Shown here one piece after another: positions 11,960 to 59,109 of a stretch of DNA of 59,880 bases. The position numbers and the translations under genes were made by a program. This DNA is from a virus (Duplodnaviria > Caudoviricetes), in IMG/VR virus record IMGVR_UViG_3300030419_004277, positions 1 through 59,880 of that record; one strand, written 5' to 3'. The notes beneath the pieces were generated by a model. The model was not told the origin of the DNA and made no database searches. It worked only from the letters and a program-made list of their open reading frames with translations. The first letter of the stretch is position 1. Each line of letters opens with the position of its first letter.

Positions 11960-12583
11960 TTACCAAAATGTTTTAATACCTAAAAGTCCTAATATATCGC
12001 TATTTACATAGGTATCAACAACTAAATGTATCCTATCAACATCACTATTGTTTTGTACAGCGTGTGGCGCTCGGACATCTACATAGTAATAATGACCTAC
12101 TTCGAGATAGTTAGTTAACTTTTCTCTACTCTCCCAAAGATAAAATTCTACTTGGTCGTTAGTTCTAATCGGAACATGGATTCTAACAATCTTACCATCT
12201 TCTAATCCAAAGTCCTTATCAATTTTATCTGAGTGTTTTCCAATACCTGAGTTAGCTTTTATCTTCATCAATCTAACTCTTTCGAATGTCGATGGTATCT
12301 TTGCCAATACATCGTTGATAACTTGAAATCCCATTTCATTTATTAACGAAGTGTCTTGTAATTTTGCTTGTTCGTTAACTCCACTTTTCAACACATTTGG
12401 TTTTAGAATATCCAACGGGTCTGGTCCGTAACCTCGCAAAGATATTGCTGTCCAATCATCACCCTTACTATATTTTGTTTTAACCTTAGAAAATTCTGTG
12501 TTATCTATATAATCTAAAACGCCATTGAAGTTTAATAATGATGGTTCAATATCTAAATGTTTTATTACACCTAAGTCACTCAT
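11960..12583 (-). CDS. aspartyl/asparaginyl beta-hydroxylase family 2OG-Fe(II) oxygenase
   Basis: RVRLM...IGKHSD...RIHVPI.TN...HAVQNNSDVDRIHLVVD. Confidence 0.85.
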   Translation of the reverse strand: MSDLGVIKHLDIEPSLLNFNGVLDYIDNTEFSKVKTKYSKGDDWTAISLRGYGPDPLDILKPNVLKSGVNEQAKLQDTSLINEMGFQVINDVLAKIPSTFERVRLMKIKANSGIGKHSDKIDKDFGLEDGKIVRIHVPIRTNDQVEFYLWESREKLTNYLEVGHYYYVDVRAPHAVQNNSDVDRIHLVVDTYVNSDILGLLGIKTFW

Positions 12584-12801: not shown

Positions 12802-13273
12802 ATCCCTCGTAGTGTGGTTTTTGCTCTAGTAAATATACTTTACCTTTAACTTGTTTTGTCTTTCCCCACTCTATGTCACTAACAACCCTAAATCCATAGT
12901 TTTCATAAAAAGCCCTAGCTCTATCATTCTCTGAACGAACCGAAAGTAAAACATCCCTCTCAAAGTTACCATCATTAATAAACTTCTCAAAAACTTTTTT
13001 AGCACTTCCATTACCTTGGTCACGAGCAGCAATTTGGTGTAATATACAATCACCCTTTTGTGCTTGATATTCACCGACTTTTTGTTTTCTTTTATATCGA
13101 TTCCAAGTTATCAAAACTCCATCTTCCCAAACGACATTTTTACTATCAATCATTCTTTTTATTTTATCTCCACGAATGTGTGGAAAGTAGGCTTTGTGTA
13201 ACTTGAATACATCCATTATTTGGTTGTAATCATCCTCTGTGGCGTGACTTAAAACTTTATGTATTCTATCCAT
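12788..13273 (-). CDS. GNAT family N-acetyltransferase
   Basis: QGNGSAK acetyl-CoA motif, LSVRSENDRARAFYENYGF. Confidence 0.88.
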   Translation of the reverse strand: MDRIHKVLSHATEDDYNQIMDVFKLHKAYFPHIRGDKIKRMIDSKNVVWEDGVLITWNRYKRKQKVGEYQAQKGDCILHQIAARDQGNGSAKKVFEKFINDGNFERDVLLSVRSENDRARAFYENYGFRVVSDIEWGKTKQVKGKVYLLEQKPHYEGYEYK

Positions 13274-14877
13274 TATGGTTTGTGAAAAATAAATATTGGT
13301 TCATATTTTAGTGTTACTCCATCTACATCAACTTTGTTTTTTACATTTGACTGGTCAACACCTATCATAGATGCCATAATCATTTTTAACTTACCTTTAT
13401 ACTGACCACCAAGTGCTTCTATAATATCAATAGAATCTTGCTCAAGTGGATGAAAATTATTTCCACTTAACTTTATGTCGGCGATATTCCAAAGTAAATA
13501 TCTATCACTTTTTAGACTCTCGTAAGCATTTGTTAATGTTGGTTTTAGGAAGTTATCTCTCCAATCGTGATACATCGGATAAGCCTTAAATGATTGTTCG
13601 TCATCATCAGAATATTGTTCTCTATCAAAATAAGGTGGTGAAGTAAATACCATATCTAACTTACCTTTGTATTGTTGAAAGTCAGGATGGTCACCAATAT
13701 GTTCAGAACCTAACTGAAAATAATGATAGGTATTCTTTGACTCTTCCCAAAATGGATTTGTTTCTAAACCGTGTTCATTAAAAAAGTCAGCAACATATTC
13801 GTATCTTGACTTATCTATCTCGTCTATCCAATTATCTGTATTCGGGTCTGTTCCAATATAATGTATTTTTTTCTTGGAAGCCATAGCACCAAGAATCCTA
13901 CCACCCCAACCACTTGAAGGATCGTAAATGTTAAGCGGTTCATCTTGTTCAATGTGGTCTGTATATTTTTCATACAGAAGTCTTGCTGTAAGTGGTGGAA
14001 AATTAACTGCTGGTTGTGAGTTCAAACTCAATCTAAATATCTGAAATGCTTTTGGAAACAATCTAGTCTTCAAATCATAATACCTAATCATGAAAACATT
14101 TTTTCTAACATTACCACCTTTTGTGGATACAGTATCAGTTAGGTCTTCCACAGATAATTTTGTTTTCAGAGTAGGGCACCATAAGTTAGTCACCATCTCA
14201 TCTGTGATTAATCCTTTGTCATAACCCAATTTTATTTCATCAGCATTTAATGTGACATAATGTTTAAGATATTTTTCTTGATGTGACTTAGCAATCCACA
14301 ACCTATGATTCTTAAACTTTAATTTGTTGTCTCGATAATATTCTAACCAAGTTAAGGCATCTTCTCCATTCCAATAAGGCAATTTATTCTTTGTATTTTC
14401 TTTCCTATCTAATGAAATAGACTTACTAAAAGTATACATTGAATCTCTACGAAGACCTCTTCTCATAGCTTTATAAAATAAATCTTTATTTACATCCTCT
14501 TTTATTCTGTCATAAATAGAATTTAATCCATCTCCCATATCTCCGATACGAGTCTTTAACATTGTAGGAAAGAACTGATTTACACCATTCGCAAACTTAT
14601 TAAAGTTTCTGATTACATTTCTTTGTCCATCATCAGCTTTTTCTATAAAGCCGTGTATGTCATATTCTCTCAGTTTTTTAAATGACTTAATTATGTCCTC
14701 GATTGATTGACCAACCATAGGAGGCGTTCCTCGCTCATCCCAATCTTCAATTATATATTGACGAACTTGTTCTATCCAATCATCAAGCTGCTCATCAGTT
14801 TTACAAAATAACTCATGATATGTAATATTGATTTTTGAATCTAAAATACCACTCTTTTCGTAGTAGTATTTATTCAC
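13273..14877 (-). CDS. DNA amino-methyltransferase (second paralog)
   Basis: YDPSSGWGGRILG and FTSPPYFDREQY. Confidence 0.85.
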   Translation of the reverse strand: MNKYYYEKSGILDSKINITYHELFCKTDEQLDDWIEQVRQYIIEDWDERGTPPMVGQSIEDIIKSFKKLREYDIHGFIEKADDGQRNVIRNFNKFANGVNQFFPTMLKTRIGDMGDGLNSIYDRIKEDVNKDLFYKAMRRGLRRDSMYTFSKSISLDRKENTKNKLPYWNGEDALTWLEYYRDNKLKFKNHRLWIAKSHQEKYLKHYVTLNADEIKLGYDKGLITDEMVTNLWCPTLKTKLSVEDLTDTVSTKGGNVRKNVFMIRYYDLKTRLFPKAFQIFRLSLNSQPAVNFPPLTARLLYEKYTDHIEQDEPLNIYDPSSGWGGRILGAMASKKKIHYIGTDPNTDNWIDEIDKSRYEYVADFFNEHGLETNPFWEESKNTYHYFQLGSEHIGDHPDFQQYKGKLDMVFTSPPYFDREQYSDDDEQSFKAYPMYHDWRDNFLKPTLTNAYESLKSDRYLLWNIADIKLSGNNFHPLEQDSIDIIEALGGQYKGKLKMIMASMIGVDQSNVKNKVDVDGVTLKYEPIFIFHKP

Positions 14878-17010: not shown

Positions 17011-17704
17011 GTGCTTTACTCCATATTTTTGTTGTTTTTGGAAATGTTTGATTCATAAATTTTAATAAAACCTTTGCATATTCTTGTATTTCTATTTGTG
17101 CTGTTTTTTCATTTCTTAACTCTATAAAGTTCATAACGGCTTGAAATGATGCCGTCCAATATACTTCAGTATATAAAGTTAATGGCAATATACATCTGGC
17201 TTGTTCTTTTGCCATACCTTTTTCAATTAAACCTTGATAAGATGTTAATGCCATATAATGTGATTGTTTCCATTTAGCTTGAATATCTAGAAGTTCATCT
17301 CTATCTTCAAAATGCCCCTCACTGGCTTGTTTATTGTCTTTTGATTGTTTTCTCCAAACATCAGGCTCGTAAAAATCTTGATATTGAACATAACGACCAC
17401 TTATTTCATTCCAAGCGTGATCTTTAACAGAACTATTAGATGTGGTTTCGATACCTACAATATGTTTGTACCATTGTCTCATTACAAACTCAGGTGCTTT
17501 GATGTGAAACTGAATCTGTAAATGTCTAAATGGAGAATAGTGTTTATGTTTAGCGAGATAATTAACCAGCTTTTCATCTGATTTATCCCAATATTTTTTT
17601 CTTTTACCGAATGATACACGAGCTGAATTGACAACTGTTAAATCATTTCCTAATGAATCTACAACCTCAACAAAACCCTTGTCTAAAACATTAATTTTTA
17701 GCAT
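16997..17704 (-). CDS. thyX: FAD-dependent thymidylate synthase
   Basis: ARVSF, HYSPF, RQWYKH, NEISGRY, KEQARCILP, AQIEI. Confidence 0.93.
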   Translation of the reverse strand: MLKINVLDKGFVEVVDSLGNDLTVVNSARVSFGKRKKYWDKSDEKLVNYLAKHKHYSPFRHLQIQFHIKAPEFVMRQWYKHIVGIETTSNSSVKDHAWNEISGRYVQYQDFYEPDVWRKQSKDNKQASEGHFEDRDELLDIQAKWKQSHYMALTSYQGLIEKGMAKEQARCILPLTLYTEVYWTASFQAVMNFIELRNEKTAQIEIQEYAKVLLKFMNQTFPKTTKIWSKAHGWV

Positions 17705-17711
17705 TAAAACC

Positions 17712-17813
17712 TCATCGTCTTTTTTTGAAATATACTTTTGGTGGTCCTACTCTTTTTTTTAATTCTAATAATGTCGTTTTTTTGGACATTTTACCTTTTT
17801 GTTTTTTTGTCAT
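17712..17813 (-). CDS. small basic protein (not in ORF track)
   Basis: 33 aa MTKKQKGKMSKKTTLLELKKRVGPPKVYFKKRR; ATGA overlap with the SelW-like stop. Confidence 0.4.
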   Translation of the reverse strand: MTKKQKGKMSKKTTLLELKKRVGPPKVYFKKRR

Positions 17814-18043
17814 GTTACTTTTTGATAGCCCTCTAATAAATCCTCTATTTCATTTTTAGTTGGAAACCTACCTAAATCTTTTTTACTAAAAATTAAGCTG
17901 TTATTTAGTGTGACTTCGAATACACCACCAGAACTTTCAATCATTTTGGCTTTAATACCAAATTGTTTTTTTAGTGATTCTCTCAAACTGAGAGCTCTAG
18001 GTTCATAGTTTCACATCATACAATATTCAATTGTAATGTCCAT
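17810..18043 (-). CDS. SelW/SelT/SelH (Rdx) family selenoprotein, CxxU; in-frame TGA at 18011-18013
   Basis: AGGAG RBS; MDITIEYCMM-U-NYEPRALSLRESLKKQFGIKAKMIESSGGVFEVTLNNSLIFSKKDLGRFPTKNEIEDLLEGYQKVT; Rdx signatures I-E-Y-C-x-x-U-x-Y, GGxFEV, FSK-x4-RFP. Confidence 0.9.
17980..17994 (-). promoter_or_regulatory. putative bacterial SECIS hairpin
   Basis: CUCUCA-GUU-UGAGAG; loop G 22 nt 3' of the UGA. Confidence 0.7.
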
Positions 18044-18056
18044 TGTGTCTCCTATG

Positions 18057-18185
18057 TTAGTCAAATATTTTCATACACCTTAGAAATCTTTTAATAACCC
18101 TTTCAATGATATGTGGTTTATCGTAATTTCTAGCAATCATGAGAATAGCCTGACTCCGCACAGCAGATTCTTCTCTTTCGCTCAT
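18057..18185 (-). CDS. small hypothetical protein (not in ORF track)
   Basis: MSEREESAVRSQAILMIARNYDKPHIIERVIKRFLRCMKIFD; GAGGAG RBS. Confidence 0.55.
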   Translation of the reverse strand: MSEREESAVRSQAILMIARNYDKPHIIERVIKRFLRCMKIFD

Positions 18186-18188
18186 TAT

Positions 18189-18686
18189 TTACTCCTCTGA
18201 TGGTTTATCAACTAAATCTTCTTTTTTAGCCGCTTTTTCTGTTTCAATTTCTTTTACAAAAGCTTTCTTTTTCTCGCCGTGATATTCGTAAGCGTGTCCC
18301 TCAGCCATAAGTATGCCATTCACGCTAATCAATCCTTCTTTGGTTTGATTTACACCATAATACTTTGCCTCAGACTCCATAATACCTACTGACTTTGGCT
18401 CTACAAATATCTCACCAAGAACTCTACCAAATTTACCTGTGCCATAAGATACAATCTTAAATATACCAGCCTCTAACAACTCTTTGTTACGAGCCTTAGC
18501 AGCAAGTCCTTTGACTTTCTCTTCTTTATCTCTTGTCCTTGATTCCCAGGTGTCAATTCCCATGTACCTAATTCTTTTTTTAATTTTTAAATCGAAACCC
18601 AAATCAATCCAACAATCAATTGTGTCCCCATCTAAAACTTTAATTAATGTTCCGTTATATTCAAACGAAGCTGGTTTTTTAGCCAT
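18189..18686 (-). CDS. thermonuclease (SNase) family nuclease
   Basis: VLDGDTID, RIRYMGIDTWE, GKFGRVLG, EGHA. Confidence 0.88.
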   Translation of the reverse strand: MAKKPASFEYNGTLIKVLDGDTIDCWIDLGFDLKIKKRIRYMGIDTWESRTRDKEEKVKGLAAKARNKELLEAGIFKIVSYGTGKFGRVLGEIFVEPKSVGIMESEAKYYGVNQTKEGLISVNGILMAEGHAYEYHGEKKKAFVKEIETEKAAKKEDLVDKPSEE

Positions 18687-18689
18687 TTT

Positions 18690-18971
18690 TTATCTCCAAA
18701 GGTTTTTATCTTGTTTTAACTTACAGACATATTCTAACAATCTTCCACACACCTCACAAGAGACAGGTGTAATTTTTTCGGTGTTAGAATAAATTCTTAA
18801 TTGTTCTTCTATGTAATCCTCTATAAGTTTCCAATCGTGTTTACTTTTTACATTTAAAATGTCACGGCTCGTATCCAATCCACAACAAGATGTAAAATCT
18901 TTATCACTCTCTCTTTTCGGTCTATCTTTGTATTTAAAATAGTCCCTATCTAGAGGCTTATTGCCTTTCAA
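18690..18971 (-). CDS. Cys-rich hypothetical protein
   Basis: SCCG...CEVCG. Confidence 0.55.
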   Translation of the reverse strand: MKGNKPLDRDYFKYKDRPKRESDKDFTSCCGLDTSRDILNVKSKHDWKLIEDYIEEQLRIYSNTEKITPVSCEVCGRLLEYVCKLKQDKNLWR

Positions 18972-19380
18972 TTTTCTTACTCAACTTCTTCTTCGCTTTT
19001 CTTAAAACTTCTTTCTTTTTGTTATGTCTATCAAGAAGTATTTGCTCTTTACTTCTTCTTTTTGTTTTCTTTTTAGGTTTTATTTTAGTAGGTGGGAGTG
19101 TGCCTTTCAATTTAGGTTGTTCTACACCTTTATGAAACACATTACCATTTACATCTACAAACTCTACCATAAAATGCCAACCCGCAGGTCTACCTGTAGA
19201 TTTTCTTTTAGGTTTATCTTCGTGTAACTCAGGAAAATTAATCATTATTTTTCTATTTACACAAGTTGGACAGGTTACTGATACAGCAGTTTCTCCTACT
19301 GATATATAGTTACCACATGAACACATCATATAACGAACTCCTTTTTCTTCATATGTTGGTGATTGTTGTTTTCTTTTCAT
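18958..19380 (-). CDS. Zn-ribbon basic phage protein
   Basis: CSC...CPTC, GRPAGWHFM.EFVD.NGNVFHKG. Confidence 0.7.
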   Translation of the reverse strand: MKRKQQSPTYEEKGVRYMMCSCGNYISVGETAVSVTCPTCVNRKIMINFPELHEDKPKRKSTGRPAGWHFMVEFVDVNGNVFHKGVEQPKLKGTLPPTKIKPKKKTKRRSKEQILLDRHNKKKEVLRKAKKKLSKKIERQ

Positions 19381-19391
19381 TATGTTAACTT

Positions 19392-19421
19392 AATATAGTC
19401 ATATATAACTATATAAGTCAA
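19392..19421 (-). promoter_or_regulatory. sigma70-type promoter TTGACT-N18-TATATT
   Basis: repeated tgcTTGACTtata motif. Confidence 0.65.
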
Positions 19422-19439
19422 GCATTAAATCTCATAATT

Positions 19440-19604
19440 TTATACATCTATTGTTTTCATACAGACATATAGTTTGTTATCTTTTTGTAAAATCGTGTCG
19501 GCCAATGTCCATTGTGATTTTAATTCATCACTATTATAATGGGTATCAGCCGACACAATGCCGAGAACGATGTAACCGTTATCACCTATGGTGATAAGTT
19601 TCAC
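19440..19604 (-). CDS. small hypothetical protein coupled to hsp20 (not in ORF track)
   Basis: GTG start overlaps the hsp20 TGA; 54 aa MKLITIGDNGYIVLGIVSAD...LYVCMKTIDV. Confidence 0.5.
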   Translation of the reverse strand: MKLITIGDNGYIVLGIVSADTHYNSDELKSQWTLADTILQKDNKLYVCMKTIDV

Positions 19605-20077
19605 CCGATTTTAACTGAGTGTTTTTTTGGCTTGGCAGGCTCTATTTTTGGAATTTCTATAGATAAAACCCCATCTTTGAAATTAGCTTTGATGTCATTA
19701 CCATCAAGCATCTCACCTAAAGTGAAAGACCTTTTAAAAGAAGATTGTTTCAATTCTCTACGAAGCACTTTAGCCTTCGCATCATCCCAAACACTATGTT
19801 TGTCGCCTGAAATGGTTAACACACTATCTTCTACTTCCACATTAAGTTGTTTTTTTGATAGACCTGGAATCTCAGCAACAATACCAATTTTATCATCGTA
19901 TTCGTATACATTGACTTTTGGATATGCTGAACCTTGGTAGGGTTTGACACCGACTTGTTTAACCACCTCAGGAAACTGACTTTCCACAAGATTATCAAAC
20001 ATCTTATCAAATGGCGTTAAAAACTCATCCCTATCTAGTAAAGGGAAATTAGCTGTGTGAAGCATTAATTTTGTCAT
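19601..20077 (-). CDS. Hsp20/alpha-crystallin small heat-shock protein
   Basis: PKVNVYE, AEIPGL, LTISG, FKRSFTL, ANFKDGVLSIEIPK. Confidence 0.93.
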   Translation of the reverse strand: MTKLMLHTANFPLLDRDEFLTPFDKMFDNLVESQFPEVVKQVGVKPYQGSAYPKVNVYEYDDKIGIVAEIPGLSKKQLNVEVEDSVLTISGDKHSVWDDAKAKVLRRELKQSSFKRSFTLGEMLDGNDIKANFKDGVLSIEIPKIEPAKPKKHSVKIG

Positions 20078-20147
20078 TTGTTTCTCCTATGTTATTCATT
20101 TGAACTAACTACATCCCACTTTGTGGCGATGTTCTTGATATAATATT

Positions 20148-20190
20148 TACAATATCTATACCAAATCTTTATTTATGACAAAATGTCATA
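20148..20190 (-). promoter_or_regulatory. sigma54-like -24/-12 element plus palindrome upstream of hsp20
   Basis: minus strand TGGTATAGATATTGTA (20148-20163); TATGACA-N3-TGTCATA (20174-20190). Confidence 0.55.
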
Positions 20191-20202
20191 TAACTTTAAT
20201 TA

Positions 20203-20466
20203 TTAAAATTTGTCTATGTCAGGATTAGTGTGTTCGTCTTTCCACCACTTATATTTTAACTTGCCCATCTGTCTGTTTTGTAAAGTGGTTTGGAATTTTG
20301 TTTCATATTCTTTTTCACTCATCACTTCCCATAACTTGTCAAATTCTTCCTCTTTTACCCTCTTTCTACCAACAAAATACATCTTAGCAGAATTTTTACC
20401 ATAATCAGAATGTAAATCGGTTCTACTAACAATATTATCATACTTATCAACAAGAAACCATTTCAT
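20203..20466 (-). CDS. hypothetical protein
   Basis: 87 aa with AGGAG RBS. Confidence 0.65.
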   Translation of the reverse strand: MKWFLVDKYDNIVSRTDLHSDYGKNSAKMYFVGRKRVKEEEFDKLWEVMSEKEYETKFQTTLQNRQMGKLKYKWWKDEHTNPDIDKF

Positions 20467-20476
20467 AACTTATCTC

Positions 20477-20896
20477 CTACTCATTATCAACTACTTTCAC
20501 TTTTACTGAGTTTAAAAAATTATGACCACAATCATCTGTGTAAGTGCCGTAAATAGTAATTGTCTCACCAATAAATTCTTCCCAAACAGCAAAAACAATT
20601 TTGCCATTACCATCTTCATCTGTCATACTTGCTGGATTAACCAAACTTGTCCACTCACCACTAATTTGTATTTGCCAATCAGAGTCCCATTTTATATGTT
20701 GATTAACACCACACTCGGTTGTACAACTCAACACAGAATAAGTTTGTGCTAAATCTTGATTGTACTCTATTTCATAAACTCCATTAAATTTTGGTAAATC
20801 GGATGATATTTCAAACGAACAATCGCAATCCTCAGGCATCATTGTGTTTGAACATCCAATAACAAATAACCATGTTAATAAAAATAACCTTTTCAT
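20477..20896 (-). CDS. lipoprotein
   Basis: MKRLFLLTWLFVIG-C lipobox. Confidence 0.7.
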   Translation of the reverse strand: MKRLFLLTWLFVIGCSNTMMPEDCDCSFEISSDLPKFNGVYEIEYNQDLAQTYSVLSCTTECGVNQHIKWDSDWQIQISGEWTSLVNPASMTDEDGNGKIVFAVWEEFIGETITIYGTYTDDCGHNFLNSVKVKVVDNE

Positions 20897-20898
20897 TT

Positions 20899-21114
20899 TT
20901 ACTCCTTTTCTATTTCTATATCTTTCATTTTAATGATTTTTATTTTGGTTTCCTCTAACCAACTAATCCATTCATCAATTTGTGTAATGATTTTCATCTT
21001 ATCTACATCGTGGTCTTCATTATCAAGTATTTTATCAACCCATTTTTTAATCATAGCAAGATAACCTGATAACCAAGTAGCAATCTCTTTTCTCTCTGTT
21101 GTCCATACACTCAT
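20899..21114 (-). CDS. hypothetical protein
   Basis: likely start MSVWTTERK after AGGAG and the promoter at 21128-21157. Confidence 0.65.
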   Translation of the reverse strand: MSVWTTERKEIATWLSGYLAMIKKWVDKILDNEDHDVDKMKIITQIDEWISWLEETKIKIIKMKDIEIEKE

Positions 21115-21127
21115 AATGTTACTCCTA

Positions 21128-21157
21128 AAGCTAACTAACATTACCTATATTAGTCAA
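21128..21157 (-). promoter_or_regulatory. sigma70-type promoter TTGACT-N18-TAGCTT
   Basis: repeated motif. Confidence 0.75.
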
Positions 21158-21283
21158 GCACTTTATAAACTAATTTATAGTTTATTTGTTGTGAAGAGGT
21201 TTTCACCCACTTCTTTATGAACGGAGTAAAGGATTGTGTCGCTGAGTTTTTTATTTTATATTTCATTTTCTTACCTATAAATA

Positions 21284-21874
21284 TCAAAAAGTGTACTCTA
21301 AACCAACCTTACCCTTGTAAAATTGTTTTGCTTGTAGTTTAGAGACTTCTCCCAAATTATACAACCTTATTTTATCAGTTAGTTTCCAAGATACTTTAAA
21401 TTTGTCTTCAAATTCAAATGTAGTATTTTCACCATTTTCGTCTGGTGGTAAGTAACCATCAAAAGATACCTCAACCTCAACCTTACCATCTTTATATGTT
21501 TTCTTTTTGATGATACCTATGGAGGCAAAAGTTTTAAATTTTAAACTAAATACATCGTCTTCATTATTACGGCTAGTGAATCCCCAACTTATACCTCTCC
21601 ATTTTTTTCGCCAGTCTATTTTCAAATACTTAACATTTTGACTCTCTTTATTCATATATTCTGGTTTAAAATATAAATCATTATCATACTTCAACCAAAT
21701 TAAATCGTCAAGATAGTATTCACCAAGTTCTCGTTCCCATTGTCGATTAATATAAAAGTTGTTATGACTTAGACCAACACTAACTTCATAATCATCAGGA
21801 TTTGGTTGAACATTAGGTGTTCTAACAGCAAATGAGTTGAAAAACATTACGCCTACTAACAAACTGTCTAGCAT
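21284..21874 (-). CDS. putative outer-membrane beta-barrel protein
   Basis: hydrophobic N-terminus, alternating aromatic strands, C-terminal YKGKVGLEYTF beta-signal-like end. Confidence 0.55.
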   Translation of the reverse strand: MLDSLLVGVMFFNSFAVRTPNVQPNPDDYEVSVGLSHNNFYINRQWERELGEYYLDDLIWLKYDNDLYFKPEYMNKESQNVKYLKIDWRKKWRGISWGFTSRNNEDDVFSLKFKTFASIGIIKKKTYKDGKVEVEVSFDGYLPPDENGENTTFEFEDKFKVSWKLTDKIRLYNLGEVSKLQAKQFYKGKVGLEYTF

Positions 21875-22123
21875 TTATTTCTCCTTATCTTTGACATATT
21901 TTACAGAGTAAGATGACTTCCATTTTTTGGTGTTTTTGTTTCTAATTTTAGTAACAACTATTTTTTCCCATTTTTTGTGCAACATACAAAATTGAGTTAA
22001 TTTTTCATTGTCTAATGGCAAAAATAATTCGTCCAAGTTATCTTGATATTGATGCATCGTGTCATCGATAGCTTTAACAGAATAAAGATTAGCCTGAATT
22101 AGAAGAAAAACCAGATAAATCAT
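21875..22123 (-). CDS. small secreted/membrane protein
   Basis: hydrophobic N-terminus, 82 aa. Confidence 0.5.
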   Translation of the reverse strand: MIYLVFLLIQANLYSVKAIDDTMHQYQDNLDELFLPLDNEKLTQFCMLHKKWEKIVVTKIRNKNTKKWKSSYSVKYVKDKEK

Positions 22124-22257
22124 TTTTTTCTTCTTTGGTCTAACCTTTTTTCATTTTTACGCTTTCTTGGTTTCTTAATCCTTCGGTCATCACCACTTCT
22201 TTTATCAACGCCAATCCATCGTTTTAATGTTTCAATTGCTTTAATAAATTTACTCAT
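22120..22257 (-). CDS. small basic protein (not in ORF track)
   Basis: 45 aa MSKFIKAIETLKRWIGVDKRSGDDRR...; AGGAG RBS. Confidence 0.5.
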   Translation of the reverse strand: MSKFIKAIETLKRWIGVDKRSGDDRRIKKPRKRKNEKRLDQRRKK

Positions 22258-22470
22258 TTATTTACTCCTAGTTGTTTTATCGATTTCTGACAGGTCAATT
22301 TCATAAGGACCACCATTCTTATCTATCTTACAAGCATTAGTGCTGTAAACTTGTCTCTTACTTGAACCTGTTGTATTAAATATCTTTTCCCACCTTTTAT
22401 CCCATTCTTTAGGTGAAATATTTCTTCTTAATTTATCTCCCTTTCCTGCATCGCTATATTTATTTTTCAT
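22258..22470 (-). CDS. hypothetical protein
   Basis: likely start MKNKYSDAGKGDKLR at an ATGA overlap. Confidence 0.6.
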   Translation of the reverse strand: MKNKYSDAGKGDKLRRNISPKEWDKRWEKIFNTTGSSKRQVYSTNACKIDKNGGPYEIDLSEIDKTTRSK

Positions 22471-22625
22471 AAATTCCAGCCCATAATAACAAAATGAAAA
22501 TAAGTATAACCAAAAACAATCCACAAAAACATTTTGAAATTTTCCCATTTAACATCTGAGTCTGTTGCCCTTGCTTTATCGTGTGCATCTCTTATAATTT
22601 TTTGACCTAACCAATTTCTAGCCAT
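22467..22625 (-). CDS. small membrane protein (not in ORF track)
   Basis: 52 aa MARNWLGQK...FLWIVFGYTYFHFVIMGWNL; AGGAG RBS. Confidence 0.55.
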   Translation of the reverse strand: MARNWLGQKIIRDAHDKARATDSDVKWENFKMFLWIVFGYTYFHFVIMGWNL

Positions 22626-23174
22626 TTAGTCTCCTAATAACTTAGAACCCATTTTCGAGTTTTTTATTTTATTCAAATCACTTTTTATATCGGCTAAACC
22701 AACTTCTATTTTTTTAATCTTTTTGTTAAAGTTATTATTTATCTTATCTAAATCAGCTGATAACTCTTCAATTAAGTCATATTGATCGTCATCATCGTGT
22801 TTACTTGCACCTAACCTAAAATCATTTTGAACTGTGTAAGCTTTATACTCCTCTAAAGTTACCATATCACCTAATTTTTTGTTAAGTTTTTGTTGTTGAT
22901 TTAGTATATCTATTAGAGCATTATCTAACTCTTGACCACTCTCTATAATTTTACCAAGTCTACTCATATTATCTAACATATCATTTAATTGTTTTATATA
23001 AGAACGAACTGTGTTAGGATCTGACACTTCTACAAACGCAGAAACTTTATCATCTGTTTCTTTATATTTTACATCCCATTTAGCCGTTTGCTCTTCAACT
23101 TTTGTAACGCCAAGGTATAAACCACCTACAAAACAAAATAAACACCCTAGTGAAATAATTATCATATTTTTCAT
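22626..23174 (-). CDS. membrane-anchored coiled-coil protein
   Basis: N-terminal TM helix, heptad repeats. Confidence 0.65.
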   Translation of the reverse strand: MKNMIIISLGCLFCFVGGLYLGVTKVEEQTAKWDVKYKETDDKVSAFVEVSDPNTVRSYIKQLNDMLDNMSRLGKIIESGQELDNALIDILNQQQKLNKKLGDMVTLEEYKAYTVQNDFRLGASKHDDDDQYDLIEELSADLDKINNNFNKKIKKIEVGLADIKSDLNKIKNSKMGSKLLGD

Positions 23175-23182
23175 AATTTACC

Positions 23183-24304
23183 TTACTTTAATATTGTTAT
23201 CTTTACAGCATCATTATCATTTATGATGTAATAAATACCAGCAGGTAAATTGCCTGTATTCCAAACATATTTACCCTCTAAGTCGAATTGTTTTATTAAT
23301 CTACCAGTAATATCATAAATAATTGTATAGCCGTTGCCAAAAATACTCACATTATTATTTGATGGGTTAGGAAAAGCAATAACTTTAGATTCACTCAATA
23401 ATGAGTATTGTTTTGTTAACCGCTCAAATTCTGATGGTGATACTATTGATTCAAGGTATCTAATAGCTCGTTGTTGATTTCCACCTATAACCTGTTGTAA
23501 TAAAAAAATAACATCTAAAACATTTATTGTACCGTCATCATTAATATCCGCACTTTCTATTGAACACTCATTATTAGCATAACCTAACACTAAATCTACT
23601 AACATCAATATGTCAAATAAATTAACAAAATTATCACCATTTAAGTTACCTACATAAAAAGAAATGTTATCACAAGGATCACAATAATCACCAATGCCGT
23701 CTAAATCATAATCCTCTTGGTTAGGATTGTATTCCTCTACACAATTATCAACATCATCTAATACACCATCCTCATCCATATCTAATATTAGCGTAGATAA
23801 ACCTGTTTCTATTGCCGTAATTATAGCACTTTGATTAAAACCAGATTGGGAATATATAACTTGACCAGCACCATTAATAACGATATTATGTGGCACATAT
23901 CCAACACCAAATAAAGAATAGATATTACTACCATTATTATCATCTAAAACCGGTAATGTTTGACCAAATGATGTCGCCCATCCCTCACAACTGTAAGGTT
24001 GATTCCAATCCATACCTGCTGTAACTACTTCCACTCTTTGTCCTAAATACTCTTGATAAATATACTCAATGATCGGAGCCTCCGATTGACAAGGTCCTCA
24101 CCAAGTTGCGAATGAAGCTATGAATACAACTTTGTTATGTCCAACAGAATCATAAGACCAATAACCATCGCCGTTGTAACATATTTCCGCACCAAAATCT
24201 TCTACAAAATCACCCTCAACATATGTTTGTGCTAAAACTAAATCTGATAAACCAGAAAACAAAATGAACCCAATCATCCAATATAATATTTTTTTGATTA
24301 TCAA
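23183..24304 (-). CDS. secreted thioredoxin-fold (TlpA/AhpC-TSA) selenoprotein, UxxC, with TSP3, dockerin and T9SS-like C-terminal domains; in-frame TGA at 24098-24100
   Basis: ORFs 24098..24304 and 23183..24034 are in frame and joined by 21 sense codons: VVFIASFATW-U-GPCQSEAPIIEYIYQEYLGQRVEVVTAG; DxDxDG..D..DNC repeats; GNLNGD/ADINDDG dockerin pair; FPNP...IYDITGR...LPAGIY...KITILK. Confidence 0.9.
24066..24089 (-). promoter_or_regulatory. putative bacterial SECIS hairpin
   Basis: UCA-AUCGGA-GGC-UCCGAU-CAU-UGA; loop G 17 nt 3' of the UGA. Confidence 0.75.
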
Positions 24305-57248: not shown

Positions 57249-57665
57249 TTAATTAATAACAATAGTTTTTTTTCCAAATTTTTTAGCATAACCTATCGTA
57301 GACATAGAACCTGGTGAATCAACTCCTCTTGGAATAAATGCCACTACATATTCTGAATAGATAGCAATCTGTTTATTACGAGCAAAAAAGTTTTTTACAC
57401 TATATGGTTTTCCATAATTTCTTTTATGTAGGGGACAATATAAATTGTGTGCTTTATGTGCTGGTGGATATTCTTCATATTGTAAACCTAACTCAAGAGC
57501 ATATTTCTTAGCATAAAAATCAGCTCCTTGCCGACATCCACCACTCACTATTATAGTGTCATCACCTTTATCATGTTTTAACTTAAATATAAACTCTTTA
57601 ATTTTCTTTCGGTTTTCGTATTCACGACTACCTACTATTCCCACCTTTAAAGGATTTTCCCCCAT
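57249..57665 (-). CDS. SLOG/YspA-like (DUF2493) protein
   Basis: GIVGSR, VSGGCRQGAD, RNKQI, SPGS..TI.YA. Confidence 0.8.
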   Translation of the reverse strand: MGENPLKVGIVGSREYENRKKIKEFIFKLKHDKGDDTIIVSGGCRQGADFYAKKYALELGLQYEEYPPAHKAHNLYCPLHKRNYGKPYSVKNFFARNKQIAIYSEYVVAFIPRGVDSPGSMSTIGYAKKFGKKTIVIN

Positions 57666-58510
57666 TTACAATGCTCCGTATCATAAAATTCACAAAACTT
57701 ACAAACCTTACCTGGTTTGGCCGCATAAGTCCTCTCTAATAAATAATTACCTTTCTCATCAAATACACTAGTTCTAAACTCCTCAAACTTTTTCATTGTT
57801 TTATTTATACTTGGAACTCCATTTGCTGGTTCAAATTTTTGTAGCCTTATAACAGGAAAGTCAGGATCTTTTGGTATTTTTCTTTTTAAAATCAAAAACA
57901 TCACATCAATTTTGTCCAAAGAAACATCAAATAGCTCAGAATAGTATTTTTTGTAAAGTAATAATTGAGATTTTTTGTTGAAATCTTTTTTCTGAAAGTC
58001 TGTCCAACCACGAGTCGCAGTTTTTAAATCAATAATAACAATTCTACCAGATATTTTGTTTCTCAATACAACATCTAAAAAGCCCATCATTTGGACACCC
58101 TCTTGAATATCTTTAAGTATAGGAAACTCTATGCCGACTAACTCCCAATTCTGTTTCATAAAATATTTATTACGATATTTTCTGAAGTGTCCTAATATAG
58201 AAACTCCATCTTGATAAAACTCCATCATCTCATCTTGAGTACAAGGTAATATATCTTGGCTTTCTTTTATCTTAGTAAATTCTATAACCATCTCTTCCTT
58301 TAAACGAGACTCCATATCAAGTTTGTCCGCCGCAACGATAGATTTGTTATACATTACAGATAAATACTCTTGTATGACCGTATGCATAGCAGAGCCAAAT
58401 AATGTATGTATGTTACCTACGAACACTCCTAGCTTATCTATATACCGAAGTTTCCATTTAAGGTTACAATCGTTATAAGTGGTAAACTGACTATGTGATA
58501 TATGTGCCAT
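57647..58510 (-). CDS. PD-(D/E)XK RecB/Cas4-like exonuclease
   Basis: SHSQ...C, FGSAMH, GFLD, IIDLKT, QLLLY, CKFCEF....C. Confidence 0.88.
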   Translation of the reverse strand: MAHISHSQFTTYNDCNLKWKLRYIDKLGVFVGNIHTLFGSAMHTVIQEYLSVMYNKSIVAADKLDMESRLKEEMVIEFTKIKESQDILPCTQDEMMEFYQDGVSILGHFRKYRNKYFMKQNWELVGIEFPILKDIQEGVQMMGFLDVVLRNKISGRIVIIDLKTATRGWTDFQKKDFNKKSQLLLYKKYYSELFDVSLDKIDVMFLILKRKIPKDPDFPVIRLQKFEPANGVPSINKTMKKFEEFRTSVFDEKGNYLLERTYAAKPGKVCKFCEFYDTEHCKWGKIL

Positions 58511-59109
58511 TAAATAATCTCGTCAATCATTCCATACTTTAAACAAGTCTCGGCATCCCACATTAAATCATGTTTTAGTATTTCGTCCAATTTTTTCATA
58601 GGTAGTTTTGTGTATTGTTTGTAAATATTTTTTATAGATTTCATCATCAAATCAAGGTTCTGTTTTTCATCCTCAAAATTAGAGTATGTACCCCAAAAAC
58701 CAGTTGACAATTGATGAATTAACATATAAGAGTTTCTACTCATGAACCTTTTCGTTCCAACTACTGTCATAAAAGTAGCAGCACTTGCCGAGAATCCATC
58801 AACATAAGTCCACACAGGTACTTTACACCTTATGATTGTGTCCATCGAAGCAATCCCACTCACAATCGTTCCACCACCAGAGTTTATCAAAAGTTTTATA
58901 GGTGGTTTTTCAATATCAAGAGTGTTGGATAAAGTAATTGATTTAGTTTCTAATTCACTCACTTTTTTGTTTAATTCACTACAAGCATTTCTATTTACAC
59001 TCGAATAAAAGTAAATTTTATTATCCTGAACTGATATGTGTTTTTCAACGGCTTCACCAGCAGTTTTCCTAATTGGTTTTACTTTTTTTTCACCCCAATG
59101 TCTTTCCAT
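58510..59109 (-). CDS. clpP: ClpP-like serine protease subunit
   Basis: INSGGG, SASAAT, LIHQ, HDLMWDA. Confidence 0.85.
   Translation of the reverse strand: MERHWGEKKVKPIRKTAGEAVEKHISVQDNKIYFYSSVNRNACSELNKKVSELETKSITLSNTLDIEKPPIKLLINSGGGTIVSGIASMDTIIRCKVPVWTYVDGFSASAATFMTVVGTKRFMSRNSYMLIHQLSTGFWGTYSNFEDEKQNLDLMMKSIKNIYKQYTKLPMKKLDEILKHDLMWDAETCLKYGMIDEII

Follow-up and report, generated by a model that had tools for sequence, protein, structure and literature searches.

Two genes of a tailed-virus contig, IMG/VR record IMGVR_UViG_3300030419_004277 (Duplodnaviria; Caudoviricetes), carry an in-frame TGA at a redox position of the encoded protein, followed at a short distance by a small hairpin. 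The record, referred to below as the window, is a linear stretch of 59,880 bp with a CheckV completeness estimate of 32% and a GC content of ∼31%, and essentially all of its genes lie on the minus strand. Both genes are very likely genuine bacterial-type selenoprotein genes, kept as auxiliary genes by a T4-like marine phage that would draw the selenocysteine (Sec) machinery from its host. These sequences are best explained by site-specific Sec recoding in a viral genome, because the TGAs are conserved, a covarying selenocysteine insertion sequence (SECIS) candidate accompanies each of the two families throughout, TGA acts as a stop elsewhere in the window, the lineage is T4-like and the probable host is equipped for Sec. 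This reading was proposed in an original prediction made from the sequence alone, and it is now sustained by the conserved TGAs, the hairpin covariation, the T4-like context and the presence of Sec genes in the genomes of the closest cellular relatives.

Two genes with an in-frame UGA and a downstream hairpin

Gene 1 (17810-18043, minus strand) comprises 77 codons and a TGA stop. It starts at an ATG (18043-18041) preceded by an AGGAG ribosome-binding site and ends at the TGA at 17812-17810. Its presumed Sec codon, a UGA at 18013-18011 (minus strand), is codon 11 and occupies the second redox position of a CxxU motif, C8-M-M-U11, in the context EYCMMU-NYEPR. When this TGA is read through, the product matches the Pfam family Rdx (PF10262) over residues 3-70 with E = 1.1e-18 and 67.7 bits (cut-off 22.6), and the match extends across the TGA position, which assigns the gene to the Rdx/SelW-like selenoproteins. 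Gene 2 (23183-24304, minus strand) has 373 codons, starts at a TTG (24304-24302) with AAGGAG upstream and stops at 23185-23183. Its presumed Sec codon, the UGA at 24100-24098 (minus strand), is codon 69 and the first position of a UxxC motif within F-A-T-W-U-G-P-C; the surroundings read SFATWU-GPCQSEAPIIEYIYQEYLGQR. The predicted protein is laid out as a signal peptide, a thioredoxin (Trx)/AhpC-TSA domain, a TSP3 repeat, a dockerin and a putative C-terminal domain of the type IX secretion system (T9SS) type. Pfam matches above cut-off are AhpC-TSA with 35.4 bits (26), Redoxin with 34.5 (26.6), Thioredoxin with 28.3 (23.5) and Dockerin_1 with 25.3 bits; the thioredoxin-fold match extends across the TGA and the TSP3 match is below the Pfam cut-off.

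The two TGAs are not assembly errors, since contigs of two independent DNA runs span both of them with no change listed there. The region occurs in near-identical form in 18 DNA runs from at least six studies of marine, seawater and estuary metagenomes (at least 92% of sampled words). TGA is also a working stop codon in this genome, where it ends 20 of the 55 minus-strand open reading frames (ORFs) of at least 150 amino acids, as well as gene 1 itself; the earlier statement that other genes use it normally is thus correct.

The hairpin of gene 1 (17994-17980, minus strand; CTCTCA-GTT-TGAGAG) has a 6-bp stem and a GUU loop that starts 22 nt past the TGA. That of gene 2 (24086-24072, minus strand; ATCGGA-GGC-TCCGAT) has a 6-bp stem beginning 11 nt after the TGA and a GGC loop beginning 17 nt after it. 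The program bSECISearch is said to look for a stem-loop shortly 3′ of a UGA with an apical loop that starts with G, and both hairpins agree with this description. On this strand, 1573 of 59800 positions (2.6%) are followed, within the same distance range, by a perfect stem of at least 6 bp closed by a G-led loop of 3-8 nt; the rate falls to 0.56% when the loop is fixed at exactly 3 nt. The codons that build the stems are scarce in this genome (TCG accounts for 4.7% of Ser codons, CCG for 6.7% of Pro codons and CTC for 0.7% of Leu codons), and the joint probability of the synonymous choices is 6e-4 for S-E-A-P in gene 2 and 2.4e-4 for L-S-L-R in gene 1. Codon choice in both hairpins is therefore strongly atypical for this genome.

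These observations confirm the positions given in the original prediction for a TGA at a catalytic Cys site followed by a 6-bp stem and a G-led 3-nt loop in both genes. Its argument that such a coincidence speaks against random nonsense mutation or sequencing error gains from the conserved TGAs, the two unchanged DNA runs and the 0.56% chance rate. The description of the genes as unrelated holds in that they belong to two different protein families, but they are linked and travel together in several relatives: they co-occur on a 39.7-kb related contig (G010) and are no more than 2 kb apart in L098, L099, L101 and L102. The term ‘selenoproteome’ proved too broad, as it covers just these two genes within the visible 32% of the genome. 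The suggested scan for further TGA/Cys pairs, extended from the window to 20 stretches of related contigs, returned 42 raw candidates for TGA-plus-hairpin genes, none convincing beyond the two families; the one candidate that was translated, at L229:6820 with a UxxC-like context, was rejected as it sits within a long ORF of another frame.

Conservation of the UGA and covariation of the hairpin in both families

A protein search with gene 1 gave 181 SelW-like homologues, and the residue at the U position was read in the 120 listed: 110 have W, four S and one R, four are truncations and one is a misaligned fusion. The W at the Sec site of these public proteins is a code-4-style mistranslation and not a real Trp, because P0004, which is 99% identical to the gene 1 protein, renders the true TGA stop as W too. 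In the DNA, TGA stands opposite U in 165 of 167 readable loci, namely in 8/8 IMG/VR loci (54-96% amino acid identity), 79/79 loci from bacterial genomes, which span many phyla, and 78/80 metagenome loci; one further genome locus is masked and hence unreadable, and some contigs are present in two collections, so that the set contains 142 distinct 51-mers. The locus search could not have favoured TGA because its patterns were downstream of the site or specified TGG. No Cys form of the gene was seen in the 120 proteins listed or in the 167 readable loci. The two loci that depart from TGA are marine metagenome variants with TCA (Ser), L120:1435-1479 and L128:748-792. In L128, the motif Cys and the loop G are gone as well, as though the gene had decayed once Sec was lost; this joint loss is as expected if UGA, motif and hairpin form one functional unit.

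The SelW-like hairpin keeps constant columns, with stem arms at nt 20-25 and 29-34 (numbering starts at the T of TGA) and a 3-nt loop that begins with G in 114/114 cellular sequences examined. Across 143 aligned sequences, 92.6% of cells are paired versus 73.0% after shuffling, a level reached in 0/500 shuffles; two-sided changes number 185 cells versus 74.9 in shuffles, and slid controls pair in 34-53%. Members of the low-GC marine clade have, besides CTCTCA/TGAGAG, the stems CTCTTA/TAAGAG, CCTTTA/TAAAGG, CCCTTA/TAAGGG and CTCGTA/TACGAG. Some stem changes replace amino acids in both arms at once, as in the change from CUC/AGA to UUU/AAG.

The Trx-like family presents the same picture. Among its 238 database homologues, most cover ∼74-80% of the query because the protein calls begin after the TGA. 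Sixteen calls were fetched; all 13 that are full-length show W-W-x-x-C, the other three are truncations starting after the TGA, and several of the full-length calls run through their TGA stop as well. TGA is present in 9/9 full-length viral loci (49-87% amino acid identity), within W-U-G-P-C or W-U-P-S-C, and an in-frame TGA is found in the 26 best matches from Marinimicrobia, the phylum of the probable host (see below). The inner pairs of the Trx-like hairpin lie within invariant E-A-P codons, and the outer pairs covary, from ATCGGA/TCCGAT to ACAGGA/TCCTGT, AGTGGA/TCCGCT and GTCGGA/TCCGGC. Pairing in 37 Sec-form sequences (10 viral and 27 from Marinimicrobia) amounts to 90.7% of cells versus 79.7% in shuffled alignments and is reached in 0/500 shuffles, with two-sided changes in 17 cells versus 5.1 in shuffles and 18-42% pairing in slid controls. 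Five Marinimicrobia homologues have Cys at the Sec site (W-C-x-P-C) and retain Q-x-E-A-P; in this small sample of five Cys forms, 15/30 cells pair (50%) versus 197/216 (91%) in Sec forms. The hairpin decays in the five Cys-form homologues, and pairing is tied to the UGA. Judged by these alignments, each hairpin is the SECIS of its own family, at a fixed distance from the UGA and with a G-led loop. One refuting condition given with the original prediction combined a host lacking selABCD with TGAs not conserved in relatives; the TGAs are conserved, in 165/167 SelW-like and in 9/9 viral Trx-like loci.

Two other ways of reading the UGAs can be assessed with these data. According to the first, the codons simply terminate translation, and the genes are split or decaying, so that their products are the downstream parts (58 and 283 amino acids) or upstream stubs. 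Gene callers output exactly these pieces, and TCA replaces TGA in the two metagenome variants, one of them visibly decaying. On the other hand, frame, TGA and hairpin are kept down to 49-54% amino acid identity in viral relatives, the parts upstream of the UGA are themselves conserved (IEYCxxU in gene 1, a signal peptide and half a thioredoxin fold in gene 2) and the covariation of the hairpin is tied to the presence of TGA, which together make termination extremely improbable. According to the second, a suppressor tRNA or an altered genetic code gives the UGA a standard meaning, as Trp, Gly or Cys. Public gene calls do place W at the UGA, and stop-codon recoding is described for some phages (PMC9523058). 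Against this, TGA stops 20 of the 55 long ORFs of the window and gene 1, the calls with W (P0004, P0142 and P0145) run through real stops, no suppressor tRNA was detected, the UGA lies at the redox Cys/Sec site of a motif that Trp or Gly would inactivate, and the same TGA with its hairpin recurs in SelB-bearing genomes of many bacterial phyla. Decoding as a standard amino acid is accordingly held to be scarcely credible, and Sec insertion remains the preferred reading.

Both families are systematically mis-annotated by standard gene calling, and public protein sets hold them as truncations or as code-4-style Trp versions (P0004, P0127-P0148 and others). The expectation that gene callers under-count such viral genes was therefore sound.

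Phage lineage, probable host and source of the Sec machinery

On gene content and synteny, the contig is placed in a T4-like phage lineage. Within the window itself no capsid, portal, tail or terminase gene was found, and the T4-type markers come from relatives. The window encodes PhoH, a phosphoribosyltransferase, ThyX, a staphylococcal-type nuclease, Hsp20, a peptide deformylase, UvdE and a GIY-YIG protein, and near its end a PD-(D/E)XK-type exonuclease (57647-58510; phrog_69) and a ClpP-type prohead protease (58510-59109; phrog_94, E = 1.6e-36). In the syntenic 66-kb contig G002, where 49 ORFs of the window recur in unchanged order with ∼79% mean amino acid identity, the prohead protease and the PD-(D/E)XK-type exonuclease directly precede a T4-like replication module. 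This module, past the point where the window ends, comprises a DNA polymerase (phrog_262, E = 6e-195), a clamp loader, ribonucleotide reductase, a DnaB-like helicase, an exonuclease and UvsX. A second relative, G021 (94 kb, 51% complete), carries the nuclease, the Trx-like Sec gene, Hsp20 and the deformylase together with a T4 Gp23 capsid gene (E = 2.7e-74). The nearest Atlas clusters of the peptide deformylase are 100% viral, so that this gene yields no clue to the host. Flanks of SelW-like genes match other window genes in 22/39 low-GC marine metagenome loci versus 2/80 loci from bacterial genomes, both of the latter weak. No named phage record was matched in a megablast search with window positions 15-25 kb.

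A cellular origin of the contig, for example as a Marinimicrobia genomic island misfiled as viral and holding ordinary bacterial selenoprotein genes, would have undone the original prediction. It could appeal to the lack of structural and terminase genes in the window, to a ∼30-kb glycan-synthesis island and to the fact that both gene families are common in Marinimicrobia. However, the genes all lie on one strand and include the PhoH, ThyX, Hsp20, deformylase, GIY-YIG, prohead protease and phage exonuclease families; G002 has the T4-like replication module, G021 combines Gp23 with the neighbourhood of nuclease, Trx-like Sec gene, Hsp20 and deformylase seen in the window, the deformylase clusters are entirely viral and the flanks of the Marinimicrobia copies are devoid of other window genes. 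A cellular contig is thus regarded as very improbable, and the viral assignment is retained.

The host search covered the phylum to which a Fidelibacterota/Marinimicrobia metagenome-assembled genome (MAG) belongs, with 401 genomes. The Trx domain of gene 2 finds matches at E ≤ 1e-12 in 139 of them. The two best are 64% and 63% identical with one in-frame TGA each, and in the closest genes the motif is shared, the hairpin is the same or nearly so (that of L235 equals the hairpin of the window exactly) and the local GC is about 30-34%. The homologues share the layout of Trx, TSP3, dockerin and Por_Secre_tail domains, the tail of L235 scoring 45.6 bits. The flanks of the Marinimicrobia Trx-like copies hold no other gene in common with the window. 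Clusters of 4-5 Trx-like paralogues, the majority containing a single in-frame TGA, were noticed at G283:C1:261800-271574 and G271:C37:83188-110740. A SelW-like TGA gene occurs in 200/401 Marinimicrobia genomes, the best being 62% identical versus at most 58% over the full length in other phyla. A further SelW-like gene, on the Marinimicrobia MAG contig L087 (65% identical over residues 17-76), is uninformative, one third of it being N-masked. In control phyla, the Trx domain was found in 0/20 and 0/167 genomes at E ≤ 1e-20 and in none of five single genomes of other phyla at E ≤ 1e-10; the control MAGs titled Bacteroidota and Cytophagia belonged to the small phyla of 20 and 167 genomes. From these comparisons, the host is rather likely to be a low-GC marine member of the Marinimicrobia (SAR406/Fidelibacterota), an assignment held with no more than this degree of confidence because the controls in other phyla are weak.

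Two checks proposed with the original prediction concern this host. The first was whether it possesses Sec genes: in five of the Marinimicrobia genomes, SelA was found in 5/5, SelB in 5/5 (adjacent to selA) and SelD over cut-off in 4/5, and tRNA-Sec exceeded the gathering score in 4/5, the fifth reaching 46.5 bits versus 47. In four of the five genomes checked, SelD is itself a selenoprotein with a TGA. The second was to compare the hairpins with host SECIS elements; the Trx-like hairpin is the same or near-identical in Marinimicrobia, and the SelW-like hairpin occupies the same columns bacteria-wide.

The machinery itself apparently comes from the host, as judged by its absence from 17 incomplete viral records. 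No selA, selB, selD or tRNA-Sec had been recognized in the window beforehand, and the search likewise found none; the window has no tRNA gene and no Rfam family at the gathering score. Over the window and 16 related records (17 in total, ∼590 kb, all of them fragments, 2-51% complete), no SelA, SelB or SelD and no tRNA-Sec above threshold was detected. Two sub-threshold tRNA-Sec matches, in G009 and G021, were rejected as ordinary 73-nt tRNA-Gly(UCC) genes. In G021, ARAGORN also calls a transfer-messenger RNA (tmRNA) of 403 nt with a tag ending in YAYA (L213:218-620, ∼19.5-20.0 kb), adjoining the tRNA-Gly(UCC); the call may be spurious or reflect a tmRNA borne by the phage. The claimed dependence on host machinery is therefore upheld by the lack of Sec genes in all 17 viral records and tempered by their incompleteness. 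An alternative, considered unlikely, is that the phage itself encodes part of the machinery (tRNA-Sec, selD or selB) in the unseen ∼68% of its genome and is less host-dependent. The fragmentary state of the records leaves room for it, and large T4-like phages often carry tRNAs, as do the two relatives with tRNA-Gly(UCC); the negative search over ∼590 kb and the resolution of both weak matches as tRNA-Gly speak for provision by the host.

Exchange of the Trx-like gene between phages and hosts was approached with a maximum-likelihood tree of the Trx domain. Its 41 rows take in every motif-bearing sequence of 9 viral and 31 Marinimicrobia loci, with the exception of L175, which duplicates L174; L265 was omitted for want of a motif. 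Viral and Marinimicrobia Sec forms interleave, L177 grouping with L235 (100/95) and L172 with L234 (100/87), and the starred branches force at least five changes of the label ‘viral’. Such a tree fits repeated phage–host exchange and suggests that phages move selenoprotein genes, SECIS included, between cells.

Several points weigh against the overall interpretation. Stems are imperfect in some relatives (L003, L006/L007 and L178); in the Trx-like family, L172 folds into a different, longer hairpin and L003 and L178 have mismatched outer pairs. The Por_Secre_tail match of gene 2 (PF18962) has 26.3 bits versus a cut-off of 27. RNA-library contigs cover the UGAs with no change listed there (X19 at 17700-18071 and 23766-24199, X20 at 24032-24294) and leave parts of the 6.7-kb stretch uncovered; they are a mere hint of transcription because such libraries can contain DNA. 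The failure to find Sec machinery is no proof that the phage is devoid of it, because all 17 records are fragments. The host controls amount to two small phyla and five genomes, with Bacteroidota proper outside the set, and the host assignment depends on one or two transferable genes, GC content and a sorting tail. Some of the ‘MAG’ Trx-like copies that interleave in the tree could be mis-binned phage DNA; against this, the neighbours of L234 and L235 (DUF6029 and a second redoxin) look cellular. Finally, Sec insertion and SelB binding are inferred from sequence, as are the identity of the host, the exported location of the gene 2 product and the benefit to the phage.

Two further features of the window stand apart from the selenoprotein genes. 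A glycan-synthesis island of ∼30 kb (26522-56766) encodes GT2 proteins, UDP-glucose/GDP-mannose dehydrogenase and phrog_2170 glycosyltransferases and includes many overlapping genes of ∼300 amino acids; it is syntenic with G002 and far more variable (28-100% amino acid identity) than the flanking genes. In addition, two paralogous N6/N4 DNA methylase genes and an Asp/Asn beta-hydroxylase-like gene (7366-8589, 11960-12583 and 13273-14877) possibly serve DNA modification.

Proposed mechanism, significance and relation to known systems

In the proposed mechanism, host SelB carrying Sec-tRNA(Sec) would bind the short hairpin just 3′ of the UGA on each phage mRNA, and a ribosome reaching the UGA would insert selenocysteine instead of terminating. 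The phage would provide the mRNA signals only, with tRNA-Sec, SelA, SelB and SelD supplied by the host, most likely a low-GC marine Marinimicrobia. The product of gene 1 would be a small cytoplasmic CxxU redox protein of the SelW/Rdx family, and that of gene 2 a UxxC thiol-disulfide oxidoreductase sent to the surface of the host cell during infection, export being probable because a signal peptide and a T9SS-type sorting tail are predicted.

If the UGAs are indeed selenocysteine codons, bacteriophages join poxviruses as selenoprotein-encoding viruses, by way of the bacterial SECIS/SelB route. Only Sec-decoding bacteria could then express both genes, which would offer a new genomic clue to the hosts of uncultured phages, here the abundant, still uncultured SAR406/Marinimicrobia, and would link viral infection to the availability of selenium in the ocean. 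A broader scenario is tentative and rather doubtful: a T4-like marine phage lineage infecting SAR406/Marinimicrobia may keep the linked selenoprotein pair with working SECIS elements, swapped repeatedly with its hosts, and so act as a vector among Sec-decoding bacteria, its fitness being tied to ocean selenium and its T9SS-tailed UxxC enzyme remodelling the redox state of the infected-cell surface. A surface UxxC oxidoreductase, were it real, might serve superinfection exclusion or protection during the latent period.

The families and their SECIS elements are already known from bacteria, and the phage carrier is what is new. The SelW-like family is the most abundant selenoprotein family in ocean metagenomes, with 11.3% of the GOS selenoprotein genes (PMC9402790); the text of the same trace-element study gives its selenoprotein families no or very few viral sequences, and its supplementary tables might list a few. 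The words ‘phage’, ‘virus’ and ‘viral’ are absent from BSepDB (PMC13326102) and deep-Sep (PMC12013277), and the viral selenoproteins named in the text of a review on recoding (PMC8310308) are only the glutathione peroxidases of poxviruses (molluscum contagiosum, fowlpox), with no phage case. No published report of a phage-encoded selenoprotein was found in searches of the literature on phage selenoproteins, Marinimicrobia selenocysteine and Marinimicrobia phages.

Gene 1 resembles the bacterial SelW-like selenoproteins in its Rdx match, its CxxU motif and its TGA with a 6-bp G-led hairpin in the same columns; it differs in lying on a T4-like phage contig, within a low-GC marine clade of 54-96% identity. 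Gene 2 resembles the T9SS-tailed Trx-like selenoproteins of Marinimicrobia in its UxxC motif, in the position and core of the hairpin, in the TSP3 and dockerin repeats and in a putative Por_Secre_tail, at up to 64% identity in the Trx domain, but its protein is shorter (373 versus ∼495-530 amino acids). The minimal fdhF element reportedly has 11 nt between the UGA and the stem, a spacing also seen in gene 2. Like the fdhF SECIS, the hairpins of the window are in the coding region at a fixed short distance after the UGA and have a G in the apical loop, whereas their stems are much shorter (6 bp, with a 3-nt loop); they are putative ligands of SelB. The poxvirus glutathione peroxidases offer the viral parallel, in that the viral selenoprotein gene derives from the host and depends on the host's Sec machinery; in contrast to the eukaryotic SECIS of poxviruses, the carrier here is a bacteriophage with bacterial SECIS elements inside the ORF, and two protein families are involved.

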